Positions 946 to 19,168 of a stretch of DNA of 61,976 nucleotides are shown here, in pieces. The stretch is from positions 1-61,976 of the IMG/VR virus record IMGVR_UViG_3300020340_000001, one strand, 5' to 3'. Within the stretch, counting starts at the first letter, position 1, and each line of letters starts with the position of its first letter. The notes beneath the pieces are model-generated. The model did not search any database. It worked only from the letters and a program-made list of their open reading frames with translations, and was not told where the DNA came from. Origin of the DNA: a virus (taxonomy: Duplodnaviria > Caudoviricetes). The position numbers and the translations under genes are program-made.

Positions 946-959
946 CAGGAGTTTTAAAA

Positions 960-2324: not shown

Positions 2325-2337
2325 AATGTGATATAAT
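2309..2337 (+). promoter_or_regulatory. Consensus sigma70 promoter (early operon)
   Basis: TTGACA (2309-2314), 17-nt spacer, TATAAT (2332-2337): perfect consensus. Confidence 0.9.
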
Positions 2338-2422
2338 GGTAAAGCTGGTAGTAAAAATATTTTTTACCCTTCCAGTGTTTCTTTTAACCATCAGATATCT
2401 ACAGATATCTCAGGAGAACGTT

Positions 2423-2569: not shown

Positions 2570-2572
2570 CCA

Positions 2573-2764: not shown

Positions 2765-2800
2765 CAACCAGATATCTACAGATATCTAAGGAGAACGACA

Positions 2801-3349
2801 ATGGATAAAACTACACCGATACATCAGCATGACTGTGACAACTGTAAGTATCTCATCACCACCAACAAGATGGACATGTACTACTGTGACCAAGGTGGTA
2901 CTGGCGACACCATAGTAAGACGGTTCGGTAGTGAACCAGAGGAGTACGGTTCATCGGGCCTGAGACTAGACTCCATCAACCCCGAAGTCGCACTGGGTAT
3001 GCTAGTAGCAGTACATGAAGGTTACCTGACATTTGGTGACATCATGGAGCATAGTTTCGATAGCAAGCTACCCGAAGGCGAGACCATCAACCTACGTCAG
3101 TGGGCCGAACCACTGGAACGCAACAGGACTAACATAATCATAGACAGCATATATGACGTGGCTAATACCGTGGATGCCATCTCCAGTATTGCCTTGTTCT
3201 CTGACGGTAAGTGGCTTGAGGACGACCATGATTACAACCCCAAGACCTACCAATTCCACTACGAAGCAGGGAGAGACACTTTAGCACTAGCGCATAGTCA
3301 ATTCCTACTGGCCGACCACTGGTATAAGAAGGAGAAGAAAAATGGATAA
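2801..3349 (+). CDS. Hypothetical protein
   Basis: 182-aa ORF with palindrome plus GGAGAACG RBS; N-terminal HxHDCxxC motif. Confidence 0.8.
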   Translation: MDKTTPIHQHDCDNCKYLITTNKMDMYYCDQGGTGDTIVRRFGSEPEEYGSSGLRLDSINPEVALGMLVAVHEGYLTFGDIMEHSFDSKLPEGETINLRQWAEPLERNRTNIIIDSIYDVANTVDAISSIALFSDGKWLEDDHDYNPKTYQFHYEAGRDTLALAHSQFLLADHWYKKEKKNG

Positions 3350-3683
3350 CAACATGATTGTCCTACTAATTAGATACAACACTTATTACCGACCTGTTGA
3401 TGACCCTGATACCGGACTGACTACCAATGAGTCCTATGGAGAATGGTCAGTACTGAATGGAGGATTCTGGGAGCTTTCTGAGCTAGAGCAAAAAATTGAG
3501 GGCATGTCTGATGTTGTATCACACCAGTATGTCAACAGGGACTTTGACGGCCCACGAGATGTAGCAGAGGAGTTTGTAAAGCAATACTACCCCGATATGC
3601 AAGTGCTTGGCGTTGGGCGTTTGCCTGACTCTCGGCATTGGGTAGCAGCACTAGAGCCAAAAAAGGAGAACGACAATGGATAA
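3342..3683 (+). CDS. Hypothetical protein
   Basis: 113-aa ORF, AAGGAG SD, translationally coupled to the previous gene. Confidence 0.75.
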   Translation: MDNNMIVLLIRYNTYYRPVDDPDTGLTTNESYGEWSVLNGGFWELSELEQKIEGMSDVVSHQYVNRDFDGPRDVAEEFVKQYYPDMQVLGVGRLPDSRHWVAALEPKKENDNG

Positions 3684-3846
3684 CAACTTTGAAAAGCTAA
3701 ACATCCATGACCCACACAATGAGTACGTGTGGGCAGACACTACCCCTGCTTGGGTAACACTACTCAAGGTAGCAGGGTTTATCGCAGGTGGCATTGGACT
3801 GTTCATCGTGGTCAGTCTGACAGCCATCATTCTCATGCAACTATAA
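3676..3846 (+). CDS. Small single-pass membrane protein (56 aa), not in ORF track
   Basis: GGAGAACGACA-ATG; MDNNFEKLNIHDPHNEYVWADTTPAWVTLLKVAGFIAGGIGLFIVVSLTAIILMQL* with a C-terminal hydrophobic helix. Confidence 0.75.
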   Translation: MDNNFEKLNIHDPHNEYVWADTTPAWVTLLKVAGFIAGGIGLFIVVSLTAIILMQL

Positions 3847-3882
3847 CAACCAGATATCTACAGATATCTAAGGAGAACGACA

Positions 3883-4758
3883 ATGTACGGCGGAATGACA
3901 GATATGCCAGTGTTACGCTCGTATGAGCAAGCACTGGGGCATTACGAAGGTATTAAACCTATCAGGGGCAGCGATAACCTACGCCCCCTCTGTGCTACCA
4001 CCAATGGTAGACGCAAGAAGCACATGCAGATCATCAAGCGTGATGATGCGATAGCGTGTCGGCTATACAATACCGACGTGCTGACTTTCCACAAGAATGG
4101 CGTAGTTGAGTACTACTCAGGGGGTTACATCAGTAACAGTACTCACGCATTTGCAAGCTCTATCTTCAACCATGTGCATTTCTGTACGAAGCAAAGTGTT
4201 ACGGAAGTAACTATAGGATATCGTAAAACCTACCATGTTGACCCTAATCAAACCTTCAAGATGAAACGCGAGGGTGACATATGGGTCGCCATTGACCCAC
4301 CAAAAAACTTTGAGTACTACCTCAAGCGCAAGGAGTACAACGCCCACCGTAAACCACTCGAAGAGTTTGAAGCCCATTGCATACGCATGGCTAAACTGTG
4401 TGACCCCAAAGAAAAACAATCAGATCGCTACTCGGTATGGGAAGGGTTTAGTAACTCACCTAATGAACGTGGGTGGTTTCAACGCGAACGCTACAAGGAA
4501 CTCACTAGCAAAGACACGGAATCGTGGGGCGAACTCGTACCCCTGATATTGGAGAATGCGCGATCCACACATGTGGAGTATTGGCATGGTCACCACGTCA
4601 CACATTTTTTCGATAAGCGAAAGATTAAGGAGGCTATCAGCGACATTGTGAAGTATGCGTTCGCTGATGAACTCTTTGAACAAAGGGAAGTAAACAAAAG
4701 GACTTTTAACGGTAATGAAAAATTTGTCTGGGACAAATACAAAGGAGGACGAGAATGA
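3883..4758 (+). CDS. Hypothetical protein (291 aa)
   Basis: Long ORF preceded by palindrome plus GGAGAACG RBS. Confidence 0.85.
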   Translation: MYGGMTDMPVLRSYEQALGHYEGIKPIRGSDNLRPLCATTNGRRKKHMQIIKRDDAIACRLYNTDVLTFHKNGVVEYYSGGYISNSTHAFASSIFNHVHFCTKQSVTEVTIGYRKTYHVDPNQTFKMKREGDIWVAIDPPKNFEYYLKRKEYNAHRKPLEEFEAHCIRMAKLCDPKEKQSDRYSVWEGFSNSPNERGWFQRERYKELTSKDTESWGELVPLILENARSTHVEYWHGHHVTHFFDKRKIKEAISDIVKYAFADELFEQREVNKRTFNGNEKFVWDKYKGGRE

Positions 4759-4943
4759 AAACTTTAATGCACGCTAAATCCAAGCAACCTGTGGATACTG
4801 GAGAAGTACTAAGGGATGGCCGTGGTCGTCGCTACTACTTACGTGGTGTTCACAATAACAAGGTACTGGTGACTTCAATGGATGAACAGAAGTTAATGGT
4901 CACCGCTAAACCCGAAGTATTCAACTGCTTCTTAATCAACTAA
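4755..4943 (+). CDS. Hypothetical protein (62 aa)
   Basis: GGAGG SD and ATGA overlap with the previous stop. Confidence 0.7.
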   Translation: MKTLMHAKSKQPVDTGEVLRDGRGRRYYLRGVHNNKVLVTSMDEQKLMVTAKPEVFNCFLIN

Positions 4944-4979
4944 CCATCAGATATCTACAGATATCTCAGGAGAACAACA

Positions 4980-6044
4980 ATGAGTGAAGAAATCGTAAGC
5001 GAATTACGTACCGTTACACTAACGCAAGCAGTACAACTAACCTTGCTAAACCCTGATGTCATCTACATGTGGCGAGGAGAGCCGGGGGTTGGCAAGTCTA
5101 GTGCTGCTCAAGAACTGGCAAGGCAGACAGGTTATCCACTAGCCATGATTGATGTACCCAACCTTGATCTGGGTGACGTGGCTATGCCAGTGATCGACCA
5201 TGAGAGCAAGGTCACTCGGTATTACCCCAACGCACGGTTTGCTTTGGAACGAGGTGAACCTGTAGTCCTCTGTCTTGACGAGTTTACCAAGGGTGCTGAA
5301 CCAGTGAAGAACATGCTGCATCCCATGTTGGAGGTATTCAAACCTAGACTCGGTGACATCGAGCTGCATCCGCAAACCATACGCTACATGACAGGTAATC
5401 TTGATACCGATGGCGTGGGTGATGGACTGGCGCAACACACAAGGCAGCGTGTGGTGGAGCTTATCATACGCAAGTCTGATGCAAACGATTGGAACGCATG
5501 GGCTTTGCACAATGGTATTGATCCTATCGTGATGGCATGGGTAGACAGATACCCACAATGTCTCGCTTCCTATCTCGATGGGGAGAAGAACGAGTTTATC
5601 TTCAACCCTGCTGAACCACAGGATAACGTGGTGTCACCTCGTACGCTAGAAATAGCAAGCAGACAGATCGCTAAACGAGATCAGATTGACGAGGAGACTA
5701 TGCTGACCGCACTGACAGGTACATTGGGTGCGTCGGGTGCGGAGTCCATTATGTCCTTCATTCGGTTTCAGGACTCACTACCTAGTTTCAATTCAATCTT
5801 TAATTCACCGGATACCGCACGTATTCCCACCGAACAGGGTGCTAGAGCAGTCCTAACATTCGGACTGCTGGAGAGAGTGGAGAAGGATACTCTCACAAAT
5901 ATTCTCAAGTATCTCAAGCGCATGGAGGAGGAGTGGCAGGTAATCTTTGGTGTGGCACTCGCCAAGCACAAGACCAAGAGTGCGATTGCGTTTGCTAACA
6001 GAGAGTTTGCTAAGTGGGCTGCTGACAATGAGGACTTACTGTGA
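4980..6044 (+). CDS. MoxR-like AAA+ ATPase
   Basis: Walker A GEPGVGKS, Walker B LCLDE, sensor TGN, SPR motif. Confidence 0.85.
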   Translation: MSEEIVSELRTVTLTQAVQLTLLNPDVIYMWRGEPGVGKSSAAQELARQTGYPLAMIDVPNLDLGDVAMPVIDHESKVTRYYPNARFALERGEPVVLCLDEFTKGAEPVKNMLHPMLEVFKPRLGDIELHPQTIRYMTGNLDTDGVGDGLAQHTRQRVVELIIRKSDANDWNAWALHNGIDPIVMAWVDRYPQCLASYLDGEKNEFIFNPAEPQDNVVSPRTLEIASRQIAKRDQIDEETMLTALTGTLGASGAESIMSFIRFQDSLPSFNSIFNSPDTARIPTEQGARAVLTFGLLERVEKDTLTNILKYLKRMEEEWQVIFGVALAKHKTKSAIAFANREFAKWAADNEDLL

Positions 6045-7288
6045 TGGATAGACAACGAAAGTTTAAAGCTATTCGCATAGGGATAATGCGCTCTGATGAG
6101 TTTGGTTTGCTCAAGGGGATTATGATGATCGGTGAACGCAAGCTCACCACCATTGTACCCACTGCTGCAACTAATGGCAGGGATGAAATCTACAATCCTG
6201 ACTTCCTGTTTGAGACGATCAGCAACGGAGACAAGGGTATCGGCTTCATCATTGTTCACGAGAACATGCACAAGGCAGCGCGACACATGATTGTCTATCA
6301 GGCACTTCATCGCAAGAACGCACGGCTTACGAACATGGCGTGTGACTATTGGATAAATGATCGCATTATGAAAGCTGACCCCGACAAAAGAATCGTGGAG
6401 ATGCCCACCGACTCGGAAGGTAAGTACATTGGACTGTACGACAAGAAGTACGAGGGGTGGACTGTCAAAGCTATCTTCTACGACCTACTCAAGGAGCAGG
6501 AAGAGCAAGGAGGTGACGGGGAAGGCGAAGGTCCACAAGGTGAGGGACAAGGCCAAGGTTCGGGACAAGGCCAAGGTGATGGTGGGTTTGATGACCATGA
6601 CTGGGAAGGGGCGCAGGATATGCCCAAGGAAGAACAGGACAAACTCACTAACGATGTCAAAGAAGCCATAAGGCAGGGACAACATGCTGCCCGCAAAGCA
6701 GGTACAGGTGGACTGCAAGATGCACTGGGTCTGGGTGAACTTGTCCGACCCAAGGTGGATTGGCGTGTACAGTTGCGTGAGTTTCTCAATGCGACGTGCC
6801 GTAAGAAGGAACGCTCCACATGGCGCAGACCTAATCGCAGGTTCTTACATCAAGACATCATTATGCCTACGCTAGAAGGTGAAAGTATCAAGGTCATGGT
6901 GCAAGCCAGAGACGCATCGGGTTCCATGTGGTACGAGGACCGCCTTGGTACGGTGACAGGTGAGATGGTCTCAATCGCCAAGATGCTAGACGTTGATGAG
7001 ATTCATGTCATTGATTGGGATGGCAAAGCTGTGTATCGAGGGTGTTACAACAGTGACCAGATCAAGAACGCACCGCCTATCAAGGAAGTAGTGGGAGGGG
7101 GTGGCACTAATCCGGTGTGTGTCTCTGACTACTTGGATAAGCACAACATCAAACCAGACTGCATCGTGGTGCTGACTGATGGTGAAGTCTATGGCTCGTG
7201 GGGTAATTGGAAAGCCCCTGTACTTTGGGCCATTGCAAACACACGCAAGATAACTGCCCCTGTGGGTAAAACAATTAACATTGATTAA
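6041..7288 (+). CDS. Metallopeptidase-like + VWA domain protein (DUF2201-like)
   Basis: TAATNG and HENMH (HExxH) motifs, G/Q/E-rich linker, MIDAS DASGS, GGGGT, VLTDG. Confidence 0.85.
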   Translation: MMDRQRKFKAIRIGIMRSDEFGLLKGIMMIGERKLTTIVPTAATNGRDEIYNPDFLFETISNGDKGIGFIIVHENMHKAARHMIVYQALHRKNARLTNMACDYWINDRIMKADPDKRIVEMPTDSEGKYIGLYDKKYEGWTVKAIFYDLLKEQEEQGGDGEGEGPQGEGQGQGSGQGQGDGGFDDHDWEGAQDMPKEEQDKLTNDVKEAIRQGQHAARKAGTGGLQDALGLGELVRPKVDWRVQLREFLNATCRKKERSTWRRPNRRFLHQDIIMPTLEGESIKVMVQARDASGSMWYEDRLGTVTGEMVSIAKMLDVDEIHVIDWDGKAVYRGCYNSDQIKNAPPIKEVVGGGGTNPVCVSDYLDKHNIKPDCIVVLTDGEVYGSWGNWKAPVLWAIANTRKITAPVGKTINID

Positions 7289-7316
7289 ACCTAGATGTTC
7301 TAGGTTGGAGAACGAT

Positions 7317-8177
7317 ATGAGTGCAATAGCAAATAGTGCAGTATTGGTACGTCTAAATATTAGCGTATGGGGAGCAAGTAAACGCAACAAGGAATTGGAG
7401 CATGAGGTGGCACGTAACAAAAAAGCTGACCCTCAAGCGATGCGTATGTATGACAACCTGATGGTAGGTTCAACAGGTCATCGAGATGTCCAGAGACATG
7501 CAGCACAGTCTCGCCTATGGCATACCGGACTGACCTTGCCGTGGGATGAACGAGGCTATCGGCTTTGTCCTACTAGTCTATTCATAGACTACAAATCCCA
7601 GCACAATGTGAAACGTGCTACGTTTGACAGACTAGTGGATATCTTTCGGGTTAAGTATCTTGGCTATCGTGAGACTGCTAAAGAATACCGAGGGGACATA
7701 TTCAACGAGCTTGACTACCCACCATTGGCCGAGGTGATGGAGAAGTTTTGTTGGAACTTCACGGTAGCACCTGTCCCACAAAGCGGTCACTTGTACGTAG
7801 ACCTGCCAGAGCAGGAGCTAGAGGAGGTGCGTACCTCATGTGACCAAGAAGTAGAACGCAAGATAGCTGAAGCGAGTAAGGAGAACGAGAAGCGTCTACT
7901 CAAAGAACTGCAAGGCATCAGTGAGAAGTGTACCGACATTGGAGATGATGAGGAGTCAGATAAGCGGTGGCATGACTCATTTATTTCTAATCCTTTGCGT
8001 CTCTGTCAATTACTCAAGCACACGAACCTGACCAGTGACCCCAAGGTAGAGGAAGCACGACAACGTCTCGAAGATGTTATGCGAGGTAAGGACAAGGATA
8101 TGTTCAAGGAAGACCCGCACGTGCGAGAAAAGGTGAAGGAAGAAGTGGACTCAATCATTAAATCTTACGATTGGTAA
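7317..8177 (+). CDS. Conserved phage protein (DUF3150-like) usually found beside AAA/VWA pairs
   Basis: MSAIANSAVLVRLNISVW...TLPW...DYP pattern; ATG 7317 follows GGAGAACG. Confidence 0.6.
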   Translation: MSAIANSAVLVRLNISVWGASKRNKELEHEVARNKKADPQAMRMYDNLMVGSTGHRDVQRHAAQSRLWHTGLTLPWDERGYRLCPTSLFIDYKSQHNVKRATFDRLVDIFRVKYLGYRETAKEYRGDIFNELDYPPLAEVMEKFCWNFTVAPVPQSGHLYVDLPEQELEEVRTSCDQEVERKIAEASKENEKRLLKELQGISEKCTDIGDDEESDKRWHDSFISNPLRLCQLLKHTNLTSDPKVEEARQRLEDVMRGKDKDMFKEDPHVREKVKEEVDSIIKSYDW

Positions 8178-8208
8178 CTGAGATATCTATAGATATTTGG
8201 AGACAAAA

Positions 8209-9219
8209 ATGACTTACAAAGTATTTGATAGCAGCCAAGCTGATGGCTATGTAGAACGGATGAAAACTGGAAAGGGTCTAGGCCATTACATCAACTTTCC
8301 ATCGAACGTGTATTACATAGGACAGAAACGAGACTTTGACTACAACGACAAGAGGCATCCTGATGCACGGCCCCCAAGGGAACTGGTAGGGCCGTCAGTA
8401 GAGACTACCTACGAGGACCAGATAACTAACATACTCTTGAAACTTCTTGAGCACGTAGCGTTTCAGTTTACTGACCACAAGTTTTGTGTTGTCAATGAGT
8501 ATGTGCGCTCACGTGGTGATATAGATCAACATAAACCTACGCGGGTATTTGTCTTTGAGGGCAAACAACCCATTGGTACATTCTGGAGTGATTATATATA
8601 CGAGCGAAGCTCTTACATGTTGTGCTTTGAAAACTCTCGCATTAGCTCAGAACTTTACAGAGATATATGCAAGAAAACTACTGTGTACAACACCGCTAAG
8701 AATATCTACCACAGGTATTTCTATGGTAGCAGTAATCAAGAGGAGGCTTCAGAAGTACATTCGGAATTGCGTAGTAACGTGCGTATGGCAGAAAACGATA
8801 AGCATCGGATTTACTCATCCAAGGTTCAACGTGTGAAAGACGTGTTTGCGAATCAGCTAGAGCAAAAACTCAAGGGTCTGGATGCTCCTGAACTGATGGC
8901 ATTTATCCAAGCGATGAACAGGACACAGTTATTGGATGAAGCCCAAGAAGCAGGGGGAGAATTGTACACAGTCCAGAGCGTATCAAACGCTAAGACTTGC
9001 ATGACCATCCGCTTGCTACCCGATGACAAGGTGCTTGTGTACGAGGAACACAAAGAAGCACTAACAAAACCTAAAAGTGAATTGGGTAAAAAAGTTTTAC
9101 AGGTGTTGGCCCTACTCAAGCTGACAGAACCCAAAACATTTATCGAGAACGCAGGTTACAAACTAAACGATACAGATTACTTGATACTAAAGGAGGCCGA
9201 TCTTGAATTCGACAACTAA
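8209..9219 (+). CDS. Hypothetical protein
   Basis: About 336-aa ORF; palindrome plus GGAG precede ATG 8209. Confidence 0.8.
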   Translation: MTYKVFDSSQADGYVERMKTGKGLGHYINFPSNVYYIGQKRDFDYNDKRHPDARPPRELVGPSVETTYEDQITNILLKLLEHVAFQFTDHKFCVVNEYVRSRGDIDQHKPTRVFVFEGKQPIGTFWSDYIYERSSYMLCFENSRISSELYRDICKKTTVYNTAKNIYHRYFYGSSNQEEASEVHSELRSNVRMAENDKHRIYSSKVQRVKDVFANQLEQKLKGLDAPELMAFIQAMNRTQLLDEAQEAGGELYTVQSVSNAKTCMTIRLLPDDKVLVYEEHKEALTKPKSELGKKVLQVLALLKLTEPKTFIENAGYKLNDTDYLILKEADLEFDN

Positions 9220-9493
9220 AAGATTACGAGGCAAAGGTGTTAAACCTGCCATGCTACATGTAAACGTGCGACTACCTCAGTATGTACTAGACTACTTCAA
9301 AGAGTTTCCTAGTTACACCAAGGAGATGCGAAGAGTGCTTGAGGAACACGTCAACAAAGCAGACAAGGAAGGGGCTACGCAAGTAGCCCTAGACCAACCA
9401 CGCTGGCAAGACATTCTTGCTGATGATAAGAACTGGCCCGACGATGGAGGCATTGTCGGAATAAAGGAGAACGATGATGAAGATTACAGTTAG
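9203..9493 (+). CDS. Ribbon-helix-helix DNA-binding protein (BrnA/CopG-like)
   Basis: VNVRLPQYVLDYFK...YTKEMRRVLEEHV resembles an RHH strand-helix-helix; GGAGG SD before TTG. Confidence 0.55.
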   Translation: MNSTTKRLRGKGVKPAMLHVNVRLPQYVLDYFKEFPSYTKEMRRVLEEHVNKADKEGATQVALDQPRWQDILADDKNWPDDGGIVGIKENDDEDYS

Positions 9494-9689
9494 ATTAGAT
9501 AACGTTAATCCTGATGGTGAAGAGTTACAGTTGGGTGTAGACGAAGCACTTCTCGAAATGAAGAAGCGTTGTCAGTTAGGACAAATAACTCAAAAGGAAT
9601 ACAAAGCTTGGCTAAAGCACCTCAAGGAATCTTTTGATTATGTTGATAATGTTTGGACATCATTAGGAAATGAGGAGAGCTTACAATGA
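9474..9689 (+). CDS. Hypothetical protein
   Basis: GGAGAACG RBS, 71 aa. Confidence 0.7.
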   Translation: MMKITVRLDNVNPDGEELQLGVDEALLEMKKRCQLGQITQKEYKAWLKHLKESFDYVDNVWTSLGNEESLQ

Positions 9690-9883
9690 GTGAAATGTTT
9701 TTTGTAGATATAGATGGGGACAAATGGCAGTACGAACTGAGTACTGACCCCCCACAAGCTGTGTACTGGGATACCTATAAAGTAAAACTAAGAGACATAA
9801 AGATCATAACTAAATGCTCACCCGAAGAACGTAAAAGGTTGAAAGGTGAGATTCTTAAAGACATAAAGGAGAACGAAAAATGA
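9686..9883 (+). CDS. Hypothetical protein
   Basis: GAGGAG SD; ATGA-coupled to both neighbours, including tasA. Confidence 0.7.
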   Translation: MSEMFFVDIDGDKWQYELSTDPPQAVYWDTYKVKLRDIKIITKCSPEERKRLKGEILKDIKENEK

Positions 9884-10746
9884 GTAACTTAAAAACTATA
9901 GTACGTGGAGCATACGACATCCAGAAGAACCGCATCCAAACTGGCAACCGTATTGTCGGTAACTTCAAAGCCAAGCTAGGTCTTGCTCCTAGCCAGAAGG
10001 AAGATAAGTTAGACAAGGCGGGACAGATGGTTCTGCAAAACCTGCGAAGGTCACATAAACTTTTGACCGACGGAGTTGCTTCCTTCCCAAGACAAGCCAC
10101 ATTCAAAGGTGACGAGGTGATTAGTGATTACACCGAGTTGTGTCTGGTAGATAACTACTTGGAGTTAGAACAGCAGGAGAAGTCTCACTTCCGAAGGTTG
10201 GGTAACATCTTGAAAGACTACCCTATCTACACCGAGTTTCTCGCTGGGGTTACAGGCGTTGGTCCTGCTATGGCAGGGGTAATCATTAGTGAGATTGATA
10301 TTACTCAAGCCGAGTATCCTTCTAGCCTACACAAGTATGCAGGGTTGGATGTAGCAGGTGACGGACAAGGACGCAGCAGAAGAAAGGAACACCTTGAGGA
10401 CAGTGAGTACACCGATAAGGATGGTAAGGTGCAATCCAAGAAAGGTATCACGTTTAATCCTTTTCTTAAAACTAAACTCACAGGCGTATTGGGTAGTAGT
10501 TTTATCAAACAGTCGCCAGACAAGTGTAAGTATCGTAAAATATATGACGATTACAAACACCGTATTGAGAACATGGATGCCCATAAGGAGAAGTCCAAAC
10601 TGCACAGGCATAACATGGCTAATCGTTACATGATTAAAATGTTCTTGATTGATCTGTACAACGAGTGGCGCAAGTTAGAAGGTTTACCTGTTGCACCTAC
10701 TTACACAGAAGCAAAGCTAGGCAAAGTACATGGCAAAGCTGCCTAA
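9880..10746 (+). CDS. tasA: TasA-like Nop-domain RNA-guided DNA-binding protein (IS110/Nop family, no RuvC or HNH domain)
   Basis: N-terminal coiled coil VRGAYDIQKNRIQTGNR; IS110/Nop-like core FLAGVTGVGPAMAGVIISEI...SSLHKYAGL, FNPFLKTKL, YRKIYDDYKHR, HRHNMANRYMIKMFLIDLY; stop lies 3 nt before the dual-repeat array. Confidence 0.85.
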   Translation: MSNLKTIVRGAYDIQKNRIQTGNRIVGNFKAKLGLAPSQKEDKLDKAGQMVLQNLRRSHKLLTDGVASFPRQATFKGDEVISDYTELCLVDNYLELEQQEKSHFRRLGNILKDYPIYTEFLAGVTGVGPAMAGVIISEIDITQAEYPSSLHKYAGLDVAGDGQGRSRRKEHLEDSEYTDKDGKVQSKKGITFNPFLKTKLTGVLGSSFIKQSPDKCKYRKIYDDYKHRIENMDAHKEKSKLHRHNMANRYMIKMFLIDLYNEWRKLEGLPVAPTYTEAKLGKVHGKAA

Positions 10747-10749
10747 GTA

Positions 10750-11668
10750 ATTGGGTCATCAGTGAGTAGACAACCATATCCGACAAACGAGTCAGAAACT
10801 CAAAGACAACCATGCAGAATGAACGAGTCAGGATGCTGTAGACAACCAAGCGGGCGGAACGAGTCAGAAACTCAAAGACAACCATCAACGCTTAACGAGT
10901 CAGAAATCAAAAGACAACCATGTGAAATGAACGAGTCATTAAAGAAGAGACAACCACTGGAAGGAAACGAGTCAGTAGATTGGAGACAACCATGCTTTCT
11001 CAACGAGTCAGAGAACAAAAGACAACCAGTGCCGACAAACGAGTCAGGCAAAGAGGAGACAACCATATTCAGTGAACGAGTCAGGAATTCTGAGACAACC
11101 AAATAAAATAAACGAGTCATTTTGGGGTAGACAACCACTGGAATTAACGAGTCATATGAATCAAGACAACCACACTGGGTAAACGAGTCAAGAAAAATCA
11201 GGTCACTTTTGGCAAAACAACCATGCAGTACGAGCGAGTCAGAAATGCGCAGACAACCAAAGACGCTGAACGAGTCATGATGAGGCAGACAACCAGACAC
11301 TCTGAACGAGTCAACCCTAATTAGACAACCAAGAACAGAGAACGAGTCAGAGGGTAAAATACACCCAGAAAAGCGCAACGAGTCACAAGCGAACAGACAA
11401 CCAGAAGAGCAAAACGAGGCAACGAGTGTGAGACAACCACCGACCAAAAACGAGTGCCACTAACCAAAGCACAACCAATAGCTCAGAGCGAGTCATTTAA
11501 GGCACGACAACCAACTTGGTCTAACGAGTCAGAACGTGCGAGACAACCATTTAGCTTGTACGAGTCAAAGTAGGGGAGACAACCAGTTAGCCTAAACGAG
11601 TCACACCATTCGAGACAACCAGTGGTTAAGAGCGAGTCAATAGTGTTAGACACCCACACTTTTAAACG
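10750..11668 (+). repeat. TIGR-type tandem interspaced guide RNA array, 25 units of about 36 nt
   Basis: Alternating conserved 9-mers AACGAGTCA and AGACAACCA separated by variable spacers, nearly all 9 nt (a few 8 or 10); parsed unit by unit. Confidence 0.92.
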
Positions 11669-11707
11669 CTTAACTTCAGATATCTATAGATATCTCGTTG
11701 CAACTTG

Positions 11708-11732
11708 ACCCCGCCCTGTGCGGGGTTTTTTT
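11708..11732 (+). terminator. Rho-independent terminator closing the tasA-array transcript
   Basis: ACCCCGC-CCTGT-GCGGGGT followed by a T-run. Confidence 0.9.
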
Positions 11733-11737
11733 GTGCC

Positions 11738-11766
11738 TTTACAAAGTCCAACAGTTGCGCTATCCT
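11738..11766 (+). promoter_or_regulatory. Putative sigma70 promoter for the replication module
   Basis: TTTACA-N17-TATCCT, 5 nt before ATG 11772. Confidence 0.6.
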
Positions 11767-11771
11767 ACCCT

Positions 11772-12092
11772 ATGGCTTTAACTCCAGAAAAGAAAGTTAA
11801 GAACAAAGTAGTAGATATACTAAAGCAACATAAAGCCTACTACTTCTTTCCGGCTACGTATGGCATGGGTCGAAGTGGAGTGCCGGACATTGTGTGTTGT
11901 TATCATGGGCACTTTGTTGGCATAGAATGTAAGGCAGGTACAAACAAACCGACTGCGCTGCAACAAAGAGAACTTGCAGCTATTAAAGGAGCAGGAGGTT
12001 CGTCTTGTGTAATCAACGAGGACAATATGCCCTCACTAGTAACTCTTTTGAATAACATAAACGAAGCGCATAATGGAAATTCTGACCCTTGA
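11772..12092 (+). CDS. VRR-NUC domain nuclease / Holliday junction resolvase
   Basis: TPEKKVK...GRSGVPDI...FVGIECKAG..KPTALQ: PD-(D/E)XK VRR-NUC signature. Confidence 0.88.
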   Translation: MALTPEKKVKNKVVDILKQHKAYYFFPATYGMGRSGVPDIVCCYHGHFVGIECKAGTNKPTALQQRELAAIKGAGGSSCVINEDNMPSLVTLLNNINEAHNGNSDP

Positions 12093-13935
12093 TTTTGAGA
12101 CCTATTACTCCAAAGATTACAGCTTAAGCAAACTGACTACCGAAGAATACGTTAGAGATTCTCGTTTTGAAGTCATCGGTGTGGCTGTTAAAAAGTCTAG
12201 CTTTGCCAAGGGCAGGAACTATCATCATCGAGATGCTGCTGGGCCAATGTGGTGTACTGGCAGTAAAAAACAAATCGCAAAGTTTTTGTCTCAGTTTGAT
12301 TGGTCAAACTCTGTGGCTGTCGCCCACAACGCTATGTTCGACATGGCTATCCTTAACTGGCACTTTGGAATCAAACCCAAAAAGATTGCCGATACCCTTT
12401 CCATGTCTCGTGCTTTGCACGCTATCGAAGTCAGTCATGGATTGGCTGCGCTCTCGGAATACTATGCGCTAGGTAAAAAAGGAACTGAGGTGCATGACGC
12501 AATAGGCAAGAAGCGTTTAGATTTCACACCGGAAGAAATAGAAGCCTATGGTGGATACTGCATACAAGACGTTGAACTTACTTTCAAACTATTCCAAGAA
12601 TTTTTGAACCGTGGTTTTTCGGTGACCGAACTTAACCTGATTGACCTGACTATACGCATGTTCACTGAACCTGCTTTAGAACTGGATATCGAGGTACTCA
12701 CCGGGCACTTGGAAGGCGTTCTAGCTACTAAAGCAGAACTAATGGACAAGGTTAGCCACGAAAAAACTAAACTAACCAGTAATCCGCAGTTTGCCGAGCT
12801 GCTTCAGGAGTACGGTGTCAAACCCCCTGTAAAAATAAGTCTCACCACAGGCAAGGAGACGTTTGCCTTTGCCAAAAGTGACGAAGGCTTTAAGGCTCTA
12901 CAGGACCACGAAAATCCGTCGGTACAAGCTCTTGTGGCTGCTAGACTAGGTGTAAGGTCTACCATCGAAGAAAAACGCACGGAGCGATTTATATCCATAG
13001 GGAAAAGAGGGAAGCTACCCATACCTTTGCGTTATTACGCAGCCCACACAGGCAGATGGGGCGGGGATGACAAGATTAATATGCAAAACTTACCACGAGG
13101 CAGTGCGCTTAAAAAAGCTATGTGCGCTCCAGAAGGGTACAAGTTTGTAGACTGTGACCTGTCTCAGATAGAGGCACGGACTCTGGCGTGGTTGGCCGAG
13201 GAAGAGGAATTGGTCCAAGCGTTCGACAGGGGTGATGATGTGTACAAGATAATGGCCTCTGCTATCTACGATAAACCTGAAGAGGATATATCAAAAGAAG
13301 AACGGTTCGTGGGTAAGACTACTATATTAGGTGCAGGATATGGCATGGGGGCCGTTAAATTTAGAAATCAACTTAAAACATTCGGTGTAGAACTGGAACA
13401 AGAGGAATGTGACCGCATCATAAATGTATACAGAACCACTTATAAGAACATACCGAAGCTCTGGCGCAGTGCAGGAAAGTCGCTGAAACAGATAATGAAC
13501 GACAAATGTACTAAGTTTGGTCGCCCTGATGTGATTACAGTAGAGGGAGACAAGGGGATTTTGCTACCTAATGGGTTGCATGTGAAGTACCCTAACTTAC
13601 GTACTGTGACTGATGAACTGGGTGATACAGAGACTCTGTATGACACCCGGAGAGGTAAGGCTATTGTGTCTACTAGAATATATGGAGGTAAGGTCATCGA
13701 GAACGTGTGTCAGGCGTTGGCGAGAATTGTCATTGGAGAACAACTACTTAGGGTAGCTAAACGGTACAAAGTAGTGATGACGGTGCATGATGCAATAGGT
13801 TGTATTGTGCCTGAAAAAGAAGTAGAACAAGGGTTAAAATACGTTGAAGATTGTATGAAGACAAGACCTGTTTGGGCATCTGATCTACCTTTAGATTGCG
13901 AGGGTGGGTACGGTGATTCTTACGGAGCTTGTTGA
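12073..13935 (+). CDS. polA: Family A DNA polymerase with 3'-5' exonuclease
   Basis: Exo motifs LDFET, AHNAMFD, YCIQD; motif A DLSQIEAR, motif B RFVGKTTILGAGYG, motif C VHDA. Confidence 0.95.
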   Translation: MEILTLDFETYYSKDYSLSKLTTEEYVRDSRFEVIGVAVKKSSFAKGRNYHHRDAAGPMWCTGSKKQIAKFLSQFDWSNSVAVAHNAMFDMAILNWHFGIKPKKIADTLSMSRALHAIEVSHGLAALSEYYALGKKGTEVHDAIGKKRLDFTPEEIEAYGGYCIQDVELTFKLFQEFLNRGFSVTELNLIDLTIRMFTEPALELDIEVLTGHLEGVLATKAELMDKVSHEKTKLTSNPQFAELLQEYGVKPPVKISLTTGKETFAFAKSDEGFKALQDHENPSVQALVAARLGVRSTIEEKRTERFISIGKRGKLPIPLRYYAAHTGRWGGDDKINMQNLPRGSALKKAMCAPEGYKFVDCDLSQIEARTLAWLAEEEELVQAFDRGDDVYKIMASAIYDKPEEDISKEERFVGKTTILGAGYGMGAVKFRNQLKTFGVELEQEECDRIINVYRTTYKNIPKLWRSAGKSLKQIMNDKCTKFGRPDVITVEGDKGILLPNGLHVKYPNLRTVTDELGDTETLYDTRRGKAIVSTRIYGGKVIENVCQALARIVIGEQLLRVAKRYKVVMTVHDAIGCIVPEKEVEQGLKYVEDCMKTRPVWASDLPLDCEGGYGDSYGAC

Positions 13936-13938
13936 AAA

Positions 13939-14145
13939 GTATGAGGTTTTTTAGGTTATTTTTCCTCATACGGCCCTAGCAGGGGGTGGGTCAAAACCTC
14001 CCGCAATATGTGACCAGTTTCATTCACTCTCCATAGTGCGCTTCGTTCTCTCTATGGCGTTCTCCGATACTGGTGTGCATATCGGTTAAACCACGCTACG
14101 GTTAGTCGTGCCTTAAGGGTTTTTCCTTTTCTCCTCAGAGGCACG
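13939..14145 (+). ncRNA. Putative structured intergenic RNA
   Basis: Several nested or adjacent inverted repeats: GTATGAGG/CCTCATAC, ATATGT-G-ACCAGT/ACTGGT-GT-GCATAT, CCATAG/CTATGG, CGTGCCT/AGGCACG; no credible ORF. Confidence 0.45.
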
Positions 14146-14164
14146 CATTGAATTTGAGGTTAAT

Positions 14165-14290
14165 ATGAAAATAAATATAGAACTTGATGACCACGATACC
14201 GCAGACAAATACATCGAACGTTTGCTCACTGTGTTAGAGCGTATAGCTGATGCGCTAGAAGATGAAGCGGAGGGTAGTGATGACGGATGA
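14165..14290 (+). CDS. Small acidic protein (41 aa), not in ORF track
   Basis: GAGGT SD; MKINIELDDHDTADKYIERLLTVLERIADALEDEAEGSDDG*. Confidence 0.6.
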   Translation: MKINIELDDHDTADKYIERLLTVLERIADALEDEAEGSDDG

Positions 14291-14459
14291 TTTGCGTACC
14301 AACACTTGCCCAAAGTGTAAAGCTACCTCAGACCAAGTTTTAAATATGGAAACAGGTAAGCGAGTTGGATGGTATTGTCTGAAGTGTCACTATTTTGAAG
14401 AAGCTATACTACGTGAAACAGTCATAACAGAAGCTGACATAAAGAAAGTACGTATATAA
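14280..14459 (+). CDS. Small zinc-ribbon protein
   Basis: CPKC...WYCLKC; probable start ATG 14280. Confidence 0.65.
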   Translation: MTDDLRTNTCPKCKATSDQVLNMETGKRVGWYCLKCHYFEEAILRETVITEADIKKVRI

Positions 14460-14469
14460 GGAGAGGACC

Positions 14470-14892
14470 ATGCTCTATGAATACAACTGTATTATTCGAT
14501 CTATTACAGACGGTGATGGACTACGTGTGGACATCGACTTGGGTTTTGGGGTTACTCTTAGGGGCGATGATGGCAGGGGGGTTAACATTCGTTTGCATGG
14601 AATTGACGCACCCGAATCTAGGACTCGAAATAAACAGGAGAAAGCACATGGCCTTCTTGCAAAGAAGTTCGTCCAAGAACATTGCCAAGTCGGGGAGAGG
14701 TACATCCTCCGAACAAAAGAGAAAGGAAAATTTGGAAGATGGTTGGGCGAGATTAAAACGAGAAAGGGACTTATTACAAAACTACTTATCAAGAACAAAC
14801 TCGCAGTTGAGTATCATGGGCAGAATAAAAAAGAAATTAAAGCAGCTCACGAGACGAATCGTAAAGCGTTAGTTGAAGCCGGGTTGTTATGA
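14470..14892 (+). CDS. Thermonuclease (SNase-like)
   Basis: DGD...VDIDLGF...IRLHGIDAPE...GKFGRWLG. Confidence 0.88.
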   Translation: MLYEYNCIIRSITDGDGLRVDIDLGFGVTLRGDDGRGVNIRLHGIDAPESRTRNKQEKAHGLLAKKFVQEHCQVGERYILRTKEKGKFGRWLGEIKTRKGLITKLLIKNKLAVEYHGQNKKEIKAAHETNRKALVEAGLL

Positions 14893-15551
14893 CCGCTTGG
14901 AGCTACAGTAGTATAAGTACGTTTAAGCAATGCCCTAAGAAGTATTATCACTTAAAGGTAGCTAGAGACGTGAAGGATGTAGGCAGCTCTGCAATGCTTT
15001 ACGGTAACGAACTTCATAGTGCTGCTGAAGAATACATAAGAGATGGAAACTCACTACCTGATAAATTTAGTTTTATTCAAAAGAGTTTAGATTCTCTGAA
15101 TAAGATAGAAGGAGATAAACATTGCGAGATACGGATGGGTATTACCAAGGATGGCACTAATTATTCACCATCAAAGTTTTTTGGGAAGAATGTATGGTGG
15201 CGTGGGATAGCAGACTTACTAATAACTAACGGTGATAAGGCGTATTTAATAGATTACAAAACAGGAAAGAGCGCTAGGTATGCAGATACTAAGCAACTTG
15301 ATCTATTAGCGGCAGCTACTTTTACACACTTTCCTGAGATCAAACACATAAAGTCTGCTTTACTATATGTAGTAAGTAATGAGTTTGTAAGCAAAGAACA
15401 TAAAGCGGAACTCTACAAATCTTACTTCACAGTTTTTGATGACGAGTTGGAAAGACTAGAGGTGGCTATGGAGAAAGAAGTATGGAACGCAGTGGATGGT
15501 CCTTTGTGTGCATACTGTCCGGTCACTAGTTGTGAACACAACAGGAGGTAA
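14889..15551 (+). CDS. PD-(D/E)XK exonuclease (Cas4/RecB-like)
   Basis: WSYSSISTFKQCP, GIADLL, DYKTG, QL, C-terminal CAYCP...C. Confidence 0.88.
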   Translation: MTAWSYSSISTFKQCPKKYYHLKVARDVKDVGSSAMLYGNELHSAAEEYIRDGNSLPDKFSFIQKSLDSLNKIEGDKHCEIRMGITKDGTNYSPSKFFGKNVWWRGIADLLITNGDKAYLIDYKTGKSARYADTKQLDLLAAATFTHFPEIKHIKSALLYVVSNEFVSKEHKAELYKSYFTVFDDELERLEVAMEKEVWNAVDGPLCAYCPVTSCEHNRR

Positions 15552-15552
15552 C

Positions 15553-15855
15553 ATGCCTAAGAAACGAAATTACAAAAGAGAGTACGAGAATTATCAAGGC
15601 ACGGAAGAGCAGAAAAAGAATCGTGCTAAACGTAACGCAGCCAGACGCAAAGCCGTACGAAAAGGAAAAGTAACAAAGGGCGATGGTAAAGATGTAGCGC
15701 ACAAGAAGGCTATATCAAAAGGCGGTAAGAATTCAGGTAATACTAAAGTAGAGTCAGCCGCAAAAAATCGGTCCTTCAAACGAAACTCTAGCGGTAAATT
15801 GGTGTCTGAAAGAAGTACAAGAGAAAGGAAAAGTAATGCACGTAATAAACGATAG
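15553..15855 (+). CDS. HNH-like basic protein
   Basis: DGKDVAHKKAISKGG.N...NRS; ATG after GGAGG. Confidence 0.65.
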   Translation: MPKKRNYKREYENYQGTEEQKKNRAKRNAARRKAVRKGKVTKGDGKDVAHKKAISKGGKNSGNTKVESAAKNRSFKRNSSGKLVSERSTRERKSNARNKR

Positions 15856-17389
15856 GGCAATTGTACTTAAAACAAAGCGTCCACACTTAGTTACTGAACA
15901 GATAAAGAACCATAAGATACTGCAAGAAACCGATGGCGTTTACAAATTAGCAATTCGGTGGGACTTACACGAAGCGCAAGTACTGGCATCTTTGAAAGTA
16001 AAAGATATTCGTTCTCCCATAGATAGAGACTATGGGTGGACAGGTAAGTACACTCCCTTTGACCACCAAAAAGAAACTTCTAATTTTCTTACGCTACATA
16101 AGAAAGCGTTTTGTTTCAACGAACAGGGTACAGGCAAGACTGCTTCTGTTATATGGGCAGCAGATTACTTGATGAACATGGGTCAAGTGAACCGTGTACT
16201 GGTTATATGTCCTCTGTCTATTATGAAATCTGCATGGCAACAAGACTTGTTTAAGTTTGCTATGCACCGTAGTTGTTCAGTTGCACATGGTACATCGACG
16301 CAACGTAAGAAAATACTGGACGCGGGAGCTGAGTTTGTCATTATAAATTATGACGGTGTGGCTGTAGTCATGGATGAAATAATGAAAGGTGGGTTTGATA
16401 TGGTAGTCATAGACGAAGCCAACGCCTACAAAAATGCACAGACTAATCGTTGGAAAACACTCAAAGCAATAGTTGAGGATGTCCCGTGGCTTTGGATGCT
16501 TACAGGTACTCCAGCAGCTCAATCGCCTGTCGATGCGTTTGGTCTTGCAAAGCTGATTAACCCTGACGGTGTGCCTAAATACTTTGGGCAATTCAGAGAC
16601 AAGGTGATGTACAAGGTCACTCAGTTTACTTGGCGACCTAAATCAGATTCAGATAAAACAGTACACGAAGCACTGCAACCCGCCATTCGTTTTGAGAAAG
16701 ATCAATGTCTGGACTTACCTCCTGTTACTTACGTGGAGAGAAACGCTCCGCTAACCAAACAACAAGAGACTTACTACAAACTTCTTAAAGACCAGATGGT
16801 GATGGAAGCAGATGGAGAGCAGGTTACCTCTGTCAATGCAGCTACGAACTTAAACAAACTACTTCAAATTTCAGGTGGTGCGGTTTACTCAGACGAAAAA
16901 GAAGTCATAGAGTTTGATGTAAAGAACCGTTTGAAAGTAGTTAAAGAGGTAATAGAAGAATCCTCTCACAAGGTGCTGGTGTTCGTACCTTTTACACATA
17001 CCATAGAATTACTAAAAGACTTTTTGACCAAGGCTAACATTAGCTGTGACATCATTTCAGGTAAGGTGTCAGTTAATAAACGTACTCAGATAATTAAGGA
17101 CTTTCAAGAAAAGACTGATCCGCATGTCCTTATAATACAGCCACAAGCAGCTTCGCATGGTTTAACGCTTACTGCTGCTAACACTGTTATTTGGTACGCT
17201 CCTGTTACTAGCGTAGAGACATACCTACAAGCTAACGCAAGGATAGATAGGCCGGGCCAACACAATCCGATGACTGTGGTGCATATAGAAGGTAGCCCAG
17301 TTGAGAACAGGTTGTACAGGATGCTGCAAAACAACATCACTAATCACAATAAGATTATAGATTTGTATAGACAAGAGTTAGGTGCTTGA
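15836..17389 (+). CDS. SNF2-family helicase
   Basis: EQGTGKT, DEA box VVIDEA, LTGTP, HGLTL, QANARIDRPGQ. Confidence 0.92.
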   Translation: MHVINDRAIVLKTKRPHLVTEQIKNHKILQETDGVYKLAIRWDLHEAQVLASLKVKDIRSPIDRDYGWTGKYTPFDHQKETSNFLTLHKKAFCFNEQGTGKTASVIWAADYLMNMGQVNRVLVICPLSIMKSAWQQDLFKFAMHRSCSVAHGTSTQRKKILDAGAEFVIINYDGVAVVMDEIMKGGFDMVVIDEANAYKNAQTNRWKTLKAIVEDVPWLWMLTGTPAAQSPVDAFGLAKLINPDGVPKYFGQFRDKVMYKVTQFTWRPKSDSDKTVHEALQPAIRFEKDQCLDLPPVTYVERNAPLTKQQETYYKLLKDQMVMEADGEQVTSVNAATNLNKLLQISGGAVYSDEKEVIEFDVKNRLKVVKEVIEESSHKVLVFVPFTHTIELLKDFLTKANISCDIISGKVSVNKRTQIIKDFQEKTDPHVLIIQPQAASHGLTLTAANTVIWYAPVTSVETYLQANARIDRPGQHNPMTVVHIEGSPVENRLYRMLQNNITNHNKIIDLYRQELGA

Positions 17390-17413
17390 CAATGTAAAGG
17401 AGACTGGTAAACT
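17386..17413 (+). promoter_or_regulatory. Putative sigma70 promoter
   Basis: TTGACA-N16-TAAACT with TG extension, upstream of AGGAGG and ATG 17442. Confidence 0.6.
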
Positions 17414-17441
17414 ACTCGTCCCTACTTTTACAGGAGGAGCG

Positions 17442-17843
17442 ATGAAAAAGTTACCAGTAGATCAAATGGTCGGTGCGTTTATGAATTTACGCGAGGCCAT
17501 TCAGAAAAGGGAAGATGAAATAAAGGAACTCAAAGAGAAGCAAGAGAAGATCAATGAGAAACTTCTTGCTCTTTGTGAGAAGGAGAACGTAGACAGTCTT
17601 AAGACACCGATGGGTACAGTCTCACGGCGAGTATCCTCAACGTTTTGGACTAGCGATTGGGAAAAGATGCACAACTTTGTGTTAAAGCATAAAGCACCGC
17701 ATCTGCTAGAAAGAAGGCTTCACAATAAAAACGTGAAAGAATTTCTTGAAGATAATCCTAAATTATCTCCTCCCGGTTTGCAGACTAATCGTAAGTACGT
17801 AGTTTCGATTCGCAAGCCAGCTAAGAAGCCTACGAAGAAATGA
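17442..17843 (+). CDS. Conserved phage replication-module protein (coiled coil + KTxxGTV...DW motif)
   Basis: ATG 17442 after AGGAGG; typical neighbour of SSB in such phages. Confidence 0.7.
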   Translation: MKKLPVDQMVGAFMNLREAIQKREDEIKELKEKQEKINEKLLALCEKENVDSLKTPMGTVSRRVSSTFWTSDWEKMHNFVLKHKAPHLLERRLHNKNVKEFLEDNPKLSPPGLQTNRKYVVSIRKPAKKPTKK

Positions 17844-19168
17844 CTAGGCTTAATGTTCAGGACGGGTATTTTATACATCCGTCCACGTATGAACCTCTTA
17901 CTAGTATTCAAGCAGTGATTGTAGATAGAGGTACTTTGTCTCGAAATTACTACGAGGATGACAAACTACTATGTTGGTCGTTCGATGCAGATTTTCCTGA
18001 TGATGAAGTGCCTTCTACTACACAGCAGTCAACACGTTGTATTGATTGCGTTAGGAATATTAAACAAGGGGGGTACAGGCGCGGGACAGCTTGTAAGTTT
18101 TTTACAGTTATTAAACTAGTAATACCCTACGAGCCAGAAGTATACGAACTTAGAATAGGTGCGCTCAGTTTGTTTTCAAGAGACACCAACAGGTTCAACT
18201 TAAATAAGTACATTGACTACTTACAGAGTAACAACGAAGAAGTAGAAAATGTTTTAACAGAAATATATTTTGGAGAGAAAAGCGGGATTTCTAAAATATA
18301 TTTCAAACCATCTCGTCCGTTGGCGGAAGATGAGTTGGTAGAGGTGCAGCAGTTAGTTGAAGATGCTGCTATTCCAAGAAACCCGTTTGAAACCATGAAG
18401 GAAGAAAACTTTATGAGCAATGATAAATATATTATTAACAACGTAAAAGCACTATACCCAAGGTTAGATCAACCTTATAGGTTTGATAAGAAGGCGGGAC
18501 CGAAAGGTAAAAGTGTGCCTTGCGAAGCTACCGATGATGGTGCTTGTTATGAACTTGATTTTGTTATGACCAAGGCACAGGCAAAAGAACTGTATCAGCC
18601 AATGGCTGCTGCGTACGAGAAGGCACGTAAGGATTCGTGGCCTGAGAAACTGGAGCTACCGTTTAAGAAGGATGATGATGGGAACTTTGTCGGGTCGGCT
18701 AAAATTAAGGCTTCTTACAACAACAAAGTAACTAAGGCTCCTCCTCAGTATGACTCTCAAAACGCCGAGCTTCCTGAAGGGTTTTTACTTACCACAGGTA
18801 GCATAGTATGTATAGCTGTGGAATTTGTGCCGTATGACATGAATGGTCACAGTGTCAGTTTACGTTTAAAGGGAATACAAGTCATAGACTACATTCCTTA
18901 CCAAGCACCTTCTCCTTTTGAAAAGACTGATGGTTTCTCAGCTAGTGATGCACCCAGTCCTTTCGAGCAAGTAGAAGAGAAAGAATCTTCTGACAACATG
19001 TTTGAGGATGATACACCCAAGAAAGAAACATCTTCTGATCCTTTTGATGATGACGATGACGAGGTTACTGAACCTACTAAACGTCCAAAGAAGAAAGAGA
19101 AACCACCAAAAGATGATGACGATGACCTCTCTAATATCATTGATGAGTGGGGGAGTGACGATAGCTAA
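17840..19168 (+). CDS. Two-domain ssDNA-binding protein (Cys-containing N-domain + T7 gp2.5-like OB domain with acidic tail)
   Basis: C-half YPRL...VSLRLKGIQVIDY followed by a D/E-rich tail ending DEWGSDDS; N-half CWS...CIDC...C. Confidence 0.7.
   Translation: MTRLNVQDGYFIHPSTYEPLTSIQAVIVDRGTLSRNYYEDDKLLCWSFDADFPDDEVPSTTQQSTRCIDCVRNIKQGGYRRGTACKFFTVIKLVIPYEPEVYELRIGALSLFSRDTNRFNLNKYIDYLQSNNEEVENVLTEIYFGEKSGISKIYFKPSRPLAEDELVEVQQLVEDAAIPRNPFETMKEENFMSNDKYIINNVKALYPRLDQPYRFDKKAGPKGKSVPCEATDDGACYELDFVMTKAQAKELYQPMAAAYEKARKDSWPEKLELPFKKDDDGNFVGSAKIKASYNNKVTKAPPQYDSQNAELPEGFLLTTGSIVCIAVEFVPYDMNGHSVSLRLKGIQVIDYIPYQAPSPFEKTDGFSASDAPSPFEQVEEKESSDNMFEDDTPKKETSSDPFDDDDDEVTEPTKRPKKKEKPPKDDDDDLSNIIDEWGSDDS

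Follow-up and report, generated by a model that had tools for sequence, protein, structure and literature searches.

The stretch of DNA analysed here, called the window throughout, comprises all 61,976 bp of a complete virus record (IMG/VR record IMGVR_UViG_3300020340_000001), with 77-bp direct terminal repeats and 43.6% G+C. It very probably represents a complete 62-kb marine podophage whose early operon ends in a working dual-repeat TIGR-TasA DNA binder, in which a nuclease-free Tas protein would be led to DNA by two-spacer guides from an array next to its gene, and one of these guides has an exact match in the primase-helicase gene of a collinear relative without tas. TIGR-Tas has already been published, with more than 20,000 tas loci catalogued and the window's lineage among them, so that in itself the system is nothing unusual. 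According to both Faure et al. (PMC12045711) and Xu et al. (10.64898/2026.09.09.750476), it has yet to be determined what TIGR spacers target in nature, and no report of such a target was found in the literature on TIGR-Tas and tigRNA natural targets. The complete genome, 69 related arrays and the one exact in-frame match provide a concrete 18-bp candidate site that can be compared with the carrier's own allele. The features on which the argument turns are the following.

2309–2337, + strand: sigma-70-type promoter (TTGACA-17-TATAAT, TG-extended) heading the early gene block, matching 12 of 12 consensus positions.
9880–10746, + strand: tasA, for a predicted nuclease-free Tas protein of 288 aa with a coiled coil and a Nop domain (Pfam, PDB sequence search, AlphaFold2 model and Foldseek).
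10750–11668, + strand: dual-repeat TIGR array of 25 units with edge repeat AACGAGTCA, loop repeat AGACAACCA and spacers mostly of 9 nt (consensus matches, repeat finder and unit-by-unit parse).
11595–11630, + strand: array unit 24, with spacer A CACCATTCG (11604–11612) and spacer B GTGGTTAAG (11622–11630); exact 18/18 match in the rival primase-helicase gene.
11707–11734 (hairpin with T-run at 11707–11727), + strand: intrinsic-terminator-like element at the end of the early transcription unit (terminator scan).
20633–20650, + strand: homologous counterpart of the guide-24 target in the primase-helicase gene of the phage itself, encoding VKKRMC; 10 of 18 bases differ from the target.

Guide 24 was chosen for searching because a sister guide in a related array (L032) differs from it at three positions, all of which become third codon positions if the target reads as spacer B followed, gap-free, by the reverse complement of spacer A. 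An exact scan returned two matches, in contigs L139 and L136, and the first of these is an 18/18 match at L139 positions 9758–9775 in just that arrangement, with gap 0 and in the predicted frame, where it encodes VVKRMV. L139 is an 18-kb contig collinear with window positions 11772–19522, its DNA polymerase and helicase being about 66% identical to those of the window, and the matched gene encodes a 951-aa primase-helicase with 45% full-length identity to the product of the window's open reading frame at 19457–22291. In the slot of L139 equivalent to that of tasA and the array, neither tas nor an array is present and only a terminator and a promoter are found. The phage's own homologous site, differing from the target at more than half its bases, is for that reason not a target. 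An allele with three mismatches is found in L141–L144. None of ten large contigs of the L139 primase group (36–63 kb, three of them 96–100% complete and two with terminal repeats) encodes a Tas homologue, and tas with its array is therefore an accessory cassette in this phage group. The hexapeptide VVKRMV is itself rare, occurring in 2 of 120 primase protein representatives, so guide 24 would be specific to one allele. Competition with related phages that co-infect the same cell is the most likely role, the matched primase-helicase being that of a relative of shared gene order and without tas. Rival siblings may be the main targets, a proposal that we rate at an even chance at best.

The match also bears on how the two spacers read DNA. 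TasR leaves 8-nt 3' overhangs according to Faure et al. (PMC12045711) and a yeast preprint, and by our own derivation only spacer A followed by the reverse complement of spacer B on one strand yields 3' overhangs. This was the target arrangement put forward in the initial annotation, and the one natural match conforms to it as well. The alternative geometry was tested alongside it, gaps of 0–2 bp being allowed in either; pairing of the two spacers with opposite strands of a contiguous target gave that single exact natural match at gap 0, with the other guides at background. The likelihood of meeting it by chance was estimated from mock guides made by re-pairing A and B halves, which matched 1.18 Mb of phage-group DNA in 18 of 395,012 cases (4.6e-5 per guide). 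Scaled to the 387 stretches of the L139 primase family in the viral collection, and to six viral-collection pattern scans with three gap classes each, this rate gives a chance of about 0.5%, a figure that is our estimate and not the output of a tool.

Several results weigh against rival phages as the targets, and they are set out together here. The role rests on one match, and the second exact match of the guide 24 pattern, in L136, is unrelated. Four other guides, covered in five pattern scans, gave background matches only. The L032 sister guide, which predicts VVKRIV, had no gap-0 match in an exact scan and one unrelated match at gap 2; compared with 71 homologous sites it came within three mismatches in one (the L140 allele) and within two in none, and the peptide VVKRIV is absent from all 120 primase protein representatives. 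When the 629 distinct guides of the related arrays were searched at up to one mismatch, 674 kb of DNA from 80 primase loci gave no further match above control, and 499 kb from the ten large rival contigs gave no match above control.

Exact 18-mer scans of the public collections have a background of about one match per pattern and gap class. Guides 2, 21 and 24, three of the 22 distinct guides of the window array, were searched in this way. Guide 2 had 11 viral matches in about seven unrelated contexts. Guide 21, which is kept in six arrays, had none in the viral collection and 22 in bacterial genomes, scattered over unrelated taxa and about at background; a match in fliG of a marine Rickettsiales single-cell genome, one of the 22, was taken as chance. 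A five-member guide family of the relatives, with synonymous-looking variable positions, had three unrelated matches, and its variant one. When the other matched loci were compared with the window, 12 of 13 shared nothing with it, four duplicate contexts lying outside the comparison; in the thirteenth, L022, which carries a distant helicase, the guide match straddles the stop codon of that gene.

In a second possible role, the same TIGR-TasA machinery would carry guides that mainly silence host genes during early takeover and the primase match would be a coincidence. The scattered matches of guide 21, the one guide scanned genome-wide, do not favour it, and neither does the low estimated chance probability of the primase match, although public collections held no phage target for four of the five guides scanned against them, the system lies in an early operon behind a host-type promoter, and host silencing is listed among possible roles by Xu et al. 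(10.64898/2026.09.09.750476). The arrays of near-identical phages differ in most guides, which suits fast-changing rivals better than a stable host genome. By large terminase (TerL) comparison the nearest cultured phages are two Pelagibacter phages, one phage with "Gammaproteobacteria" as its recorded host, and cyanobacterial phages; these share only 50–58% TerL identity with the window and infect varied hosts. On balance, the silencing of host genes as the main function appears unlikely.

The turnover of guides was followed in related loci. Database searches gave 2,455 protein relatives of TasA at E 1e-3 or better, many of them from marine surveys, as well as 2,370 cluster representatives, and 17 viral and 79 metagenomic loci were retrieved for comparison. 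Among them, 69 arrays have the same or nearly the same repeats as the window and hold 988 units with 629 distinct guides. The protein of contig Ga0098035_1000558 (L005/L043), which is 89% identical to the TasA of the window, is row 5019 of Table S1 of Faure et al. (PMC12045711), and judged by such likeness the window system is a fresh instance of a published kind and not a new system; Xu et al. (10.64898/2026.09.09.750476) report 4,126 dual-repeat arrays. A Megablast search with the window against GenBank phages gave no match. Of the 18 strictly parsed guides of the window, 13 are absent from every other array. Even a contig with a 100%-identical Tas agrees with the window array in no more than its first two units and some at the trailing end, and in contigs from two marine DNA runs the window units are linked in different orders and separated by different spacers, so the arrays turn over by unit shuffling. 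Homologous loci, then, keep their repeats and change their spacers, and the invariant spacers that would have spoken against a guide function were not found. Near-duplicate guides numbered 170, compared with 17 ± 3.7 when A and B halves were re-paired, or about ten times as many, and on this count the two halves of a guide are inherited, or selected, as one unit.

Variation within guide families falls at positions 3, 6 and 9 of both spacers in 78 family-positions, compared with 53 and 54 for the other two phases (p = 0.039), a weak signal. The phase of this three-base periodicity would suggest a 2-bp gap and is at odds with the gap-0 match, and in a test for a coding signal through stop-codon depletion the real guides behaved like re-paired ones. 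In one five-member family, all of the variation lies at positions 3, 6 and 9 and is synonymous. Read as RNA, the 629 guides are purine-rich (about 57% in spacer A and 63% in spacer B), and spacer B ends in A in 54% of them and in C in 4%; this bias could reflect stronger pairing of RNA purines with DNA pyrimidines, or an effectively longer repeat.

Taken further, the rivalry proposal holds that in marine podophages of roughly 60 kb, TIGR-TasA serves as an early-expressed weapon against siblings that lack tas, with each guide specific to one allele of an essential gene, here the primase-helicase, the carrier's own allele being too different to be hit, and with arrays kept current as units are shuffled between co-infecting relatives. 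This fuller account is offered tentatively, and we think it somewhat less likely than not to hold in all its parts. If true, it would give TIGR systems a natural target class and would confirm the gap-free opposite-strand geometry outside the laboratory. Virus-borne mini-CRISPR arrays target related viruses. The window array resembles them in that a virus-encoded guide matches an essential gene of a related virus and the virus's own allele is spared, and differs in its protein family and guide architecture, in having no cas genes, and in that its action would be binding and not cutting.

That the guides act on the phage's own genome is a third possibility, whether by regulating its genes, as in an early-to-late switch, or by aiding DNA bending or partition at its own sites. 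Gene regulation and DNA bending were both raised by Faure et al. (PMC12045711), and an early position behind the promoter at 2309 would be in keeping with such a role. The searches give it little room, since 20 window guides, in either geometry and with gaps of 0–2, found no site in the phage's own genome at up to two mismatches, and at three to four mismatches their counts equalled those of shuffles, while single internal mismatches are published to abolish TasR activity in yeast. No ParB-like gene is present among the tasA neighbour genes that were scanned. We therefore regard self-regulation as very improbable. Searches of related DNA gave no signal either: 186 guides of relatives gave no match at up to one mismatch in the window genome and none in the 4-kb tas flanks of the 17 viral loci, all 629 guides gave two one-mismatch matches in 535 kb of retrieved DNA compared with four in a shuffle, and guides searched against the array itself gave 13 matches at up to two mismatches compared with 26 in the control.

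The case for a working system starts from the protein. Pfam matches up to E = 1 comprised Transposase_20, below its cutoff (19.9 compared with 21.3 bits), PC4 (E 0.098) and HHH (E 0.11), with no nuclease family (HNH, RuvC or DEDD) among them. A phmmer search of PDB sequences found 9mty_A (E 3.1e-10), an entry titled TIGR-TasR in Foldseek, and TasH (E 5.3e-7). An AlphaFold2 model built with 45 homologues (predicted local distance difference test score, pLDDT, 89.1; predicted TM-score, pTM, 0.83) has three long N-terminal helices (residues 1–111) followed by a helical domain with one small hairpin. In Foldseek its top ten matches were all TasH or TasR chains (E 1.8e-9 to 2.1e-7), with a TM-score of 0.60 and a root-mean-square deviation of 3.9 over 270 columns for 9mty_A, and next in rank came IS621 recombinase and then Nop56/58, Nop5 and Prp31. 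The Nop-domain protein of the TIGR-Tas kind that the initial annotation had recognized is thus recovered by structure prediction, as is its lack of RuvC or HNH, the model having no nuclease domain. A Tas-fold protein with no nuclease domain is TasA-type, and on sequence and model the product of 9880–10746 is assigned to that subtype. Y275, invariant in 45 of 45 aligned homologues, aligns with SpTasH Y289 in the phmmer comparison with PDB sequences, and H284 is present in at least 90% of the homologues. Since Y289 and H296 are named as the catalytic residues of SpTasH for pre-tigRNA maturation (PMC13421893), and a Tyr/His pair is described as a mark of dual-repeat systems by Xu et al. (preprint 10.64898/2026.09.09.750476), Y275 and H284 are a candidate processing pair.

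The protein had also been called IS110-like, and this stands as far as relatedness goes. Like the bridge-RNA recombinases IS110 and IS621, TasA has a related RNA-binding domain (Foldseek E about 1e-3 to 8wt9, and the weak Transposase_20 match); unlike them, it lacks a DEDD catalytic domain and a single bridge RNA and shows nothing to suggest mobility, and the TM-score is only about 0.4. Identity as an IS110 transposase was rejected on the missing DEDD match and the sub-cutoff Transposase_20 score. The locus might alternatively be a remnant that no longer works, or an IS110-type mobile element that has been mis-annotated and whose repeat tract is decaying, given that PHROGs labels the TasA family "transposase", as one GenBank record does a homologue, and that 5 of the 25 units are irregular. 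A decaying locus is hard to square with an open reading frame that is intact and 85–100% conserved over dozens of contigs and always accompanied by an array, with a conserved catalytic pair and conserved repeat pairing, and with 18 units within one mismatch of consensus; no DEDD or RuvC domain is present. There is only a slight chance that this explanation is correct. A 40%-identical Tas homologue (98% query coverage), annotated "transposase", is found in the Ralstonia jumbo phage phiRSL1 (NC_010811.2, 13249–14187).

The array begins at 10750, three bases past the tasA stop codon (10744–10746). When one mismatch was allowed, AACGAGTCA-N9-AGACAACCA was found 18 times from 10786 to 11621, always on the + strand, and 100 dinucleotide-preserving shuffles yielded no match at all. 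Tandem Repeats Finder gave periods of 36, 72 and 108, and parsing unit by unit resolved 10750–11666 into 25 units. Their length is exactly 36 nt in 21 cases and otherwise 37 (unit 9), 35 (unit 11), 51 (unit 13) and 38 nt (unit 20). Spacers are 9+9 nt in 20 of the 25 units, and the array holds 22 distinct guides of 9+9 nt or near it. Degenerate repeats occur in unit 17 (loop ATACACCCA), unit 19 (edge AACGAGGCA) and unit 20 (both). The parse upheld the initial annotation on the placement and number of units and on all six spacer pairs that it had quoted, and the palindrome and intrinsic terminator after the array, as well as the perfect promoter at 2309 heading an early block that the array ends, were likewise found where it had put them. 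Identity as CRISPR-Cas, which it had dismissed, was rejected here too: there are two alternating 9-nt repeats with 9-nt spacers, and no Cas family among the neighbour open reading frames scanned. The smaller features of the array and its 3' flank are these.

10750–10785, + strand: first unit, its first edge repeat truncated to GGTCA at 10754–10758; relatives show ATTGAGTC followed by A, C or G at the same place.
11182–11232, + strand: unit 13, 51 nt long, in which a 21-nt deletion has joined two units; an intact AGAAAAATC/TGCAGTACG unit is present in relative L002.
11449–11486, + strand: unit 20, degenerate, 38 nt; its full sequence, including the "spacers", is kept in 6 of 11 arrays compared.
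11665–11668, + strand: final edge repeat, 3'-truncated (AACG, then C), from the sequence and the arrays of relatives.
11680–11694, + strand: perfect palindrome ATATCTATAGATATC between array and terminator; relatives have a different hairpin sequence there.

Unit 13 is probably defective through the fusion of two units. Unit 20 is conserved letter for letter and is usually followed by guide TTTAAGGCA/ACTTGGTCT, itself kept in 6 of 69 arrays (window 11449–11522), and the two resemble an old core module within the array. At the position of the palindrome, L002, L003 and L009 each have a perfect hairpin or palindrome whose sequence differs in each, the structure being kept and the sequence not; it could serve in 3'-end protection or as a protein-binding site.

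All repeats fit A[G/A]NNNN[C/T]CA. The loop repeat can be written A-G-ACAA-C-CA and the edge repeat A-A-CGAG-U-CA, so that the pair at positions 2 and 7 is G-C for the loop, A-U for the edge and G-U for the variant AGCGAGTCA, and the pair at positions 3 and 6 of the edge is C-G. Across 14 related loci with other repeat sequences, positions 2 and 7 are pairable in 33 of 33 listed repeat types, and the bases at positions 3 and 6 of the edge are C-G or, through a double substitution, U-A; the filter for this test required the leading A and the trailing CA and did not impose the pairs themselves. In the account of Faure et al. 2025 (PMC12045711), box D and box C motifs with one pair are common to edge and loop repeats, and a second covarying pair is confined to the edge. 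Their arrays and the present one have in common two alternating short repeats, 9-nt spacers, a 36-nt unit, truncated edge repeats at the ends and a terminator. In contrast to the arrays of that study, the repeats here begin with A and not U (AG...CCA and AA...UCA compared with UG...CCA) and there are 25 units where 5–15 are most frequent there. An Rfam scan gave only a sub-threshold GcvB match.

From these parts we infer the following course of transcription, processing, binding and repression. Transcription by host RNA polymerase would start at the 2309 promoter, continue across tasA and the array and end at the 11707 terminator. TasA would dimerize through its N-terminal coiled coil, with edge and loop repeats bound by the Nop domains, and would cut the precursor within each edge repeat near AACG|AGTCA with Tyr275 and His284, a position that agrees within one base with the truncated first and last edge repeats. 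About 20 usable 36-nt tigRNAs would be expected from this processing. Each would lead the nuclease-free dimer to an 18-bp site consisting of spacer A and the reverse complement of spacer B, with one spacer per DNA strand, and the bound TasA would block transcription or replication without cutting. RNA-guided repression of transcription has been reported for MbTasA by Xu et al. (10.64898/2026.09.09.750476).

Several known Tas proteins can be compared with the window TasA. In FpTasA of Flavonifractor plautii (Faure et al. 2025, PMC12045711), a solo coiled-coil and Nop protein that is phage-borne is likewise combined with dual-repeat TIGR guides. SpTasH (Salicola phage CGphi29; PDB 9w03, 9w04 and 21kl) and TaTasR (9mty) are the best structural and sequence matches and share the C-terminal Tyr/His pair and the tandem-spacer geometry; they have HNH or RuvC domains and cut DNA, whereas the window TasA has neither domain and is 20–23% identical to them in structural alignments. 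MbTasA and PlTasA (10.64898/2026.09.09.750476; 10.64898/2026.08.11.744272) have no nuclease domain and are reported to bind DNA and repress transcription, and by analogy RNA-guided binding and repression would be expected here. PlTasA uses stem-loop guides, and stem-loop Tas proteins are described as lacking the Tyr/His loop, whereas the window TasA is dual-repeat and has kept it.

Three points tell against a fully working system of this kind. H284 lies two residues off the position aligned with SpTasH H296, 5 of the 25 units are irregular or degenerate, and a single contig from an RNA library is the sole RNA hint. That contig, of 376 nt and from an oligo-dT RNA-seq library (run X18), contains the 3' end of a relative's tas (12 differences; window 10446–10758) and 63 nt of array with other spacers. 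It is a weak hint of co-transcription of tas and array, DNA carry-over being possible. Three metatranscriptome runs on related samples contained hardly any of the sequence words that were sampled.

Every open reading frame from 2309 to 10746, up to and including tasA, lies on the + strand. In a scan of the + strand over positions 1–14500, terminator-like sites upstream of the promoter were found at 357, 629 and 1739, all weaker than the one at 11707, and downstream of it only at 11707 and, nested within, at 11713; the overall count of such sites was no greater than in shuffles. TasA and the array are the last part of the early gene block. Genes upstream of tasA include a MoxR-like ATPase and a DUF2201/VWA protein, and replication genes lie 3' of the array, with structural genes on the opposite strand. 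The two strong + strand terminators, at 1739–1778 and 11707–11737, have an identical tail, TTTTTGTGCC. Directly after the latter, at 11738, is a promoter-like site, TTTACA-17-TATCCT, where the equivalent slot of L139 has TTGACA-17-TATAGT. Elsewhere in the genome, the C-terminal 770 residues of a 2,003-aa product (22442–28450, − strand) match a PHROG annotated as a DarB-like antirestriction protein (E 9e-59).

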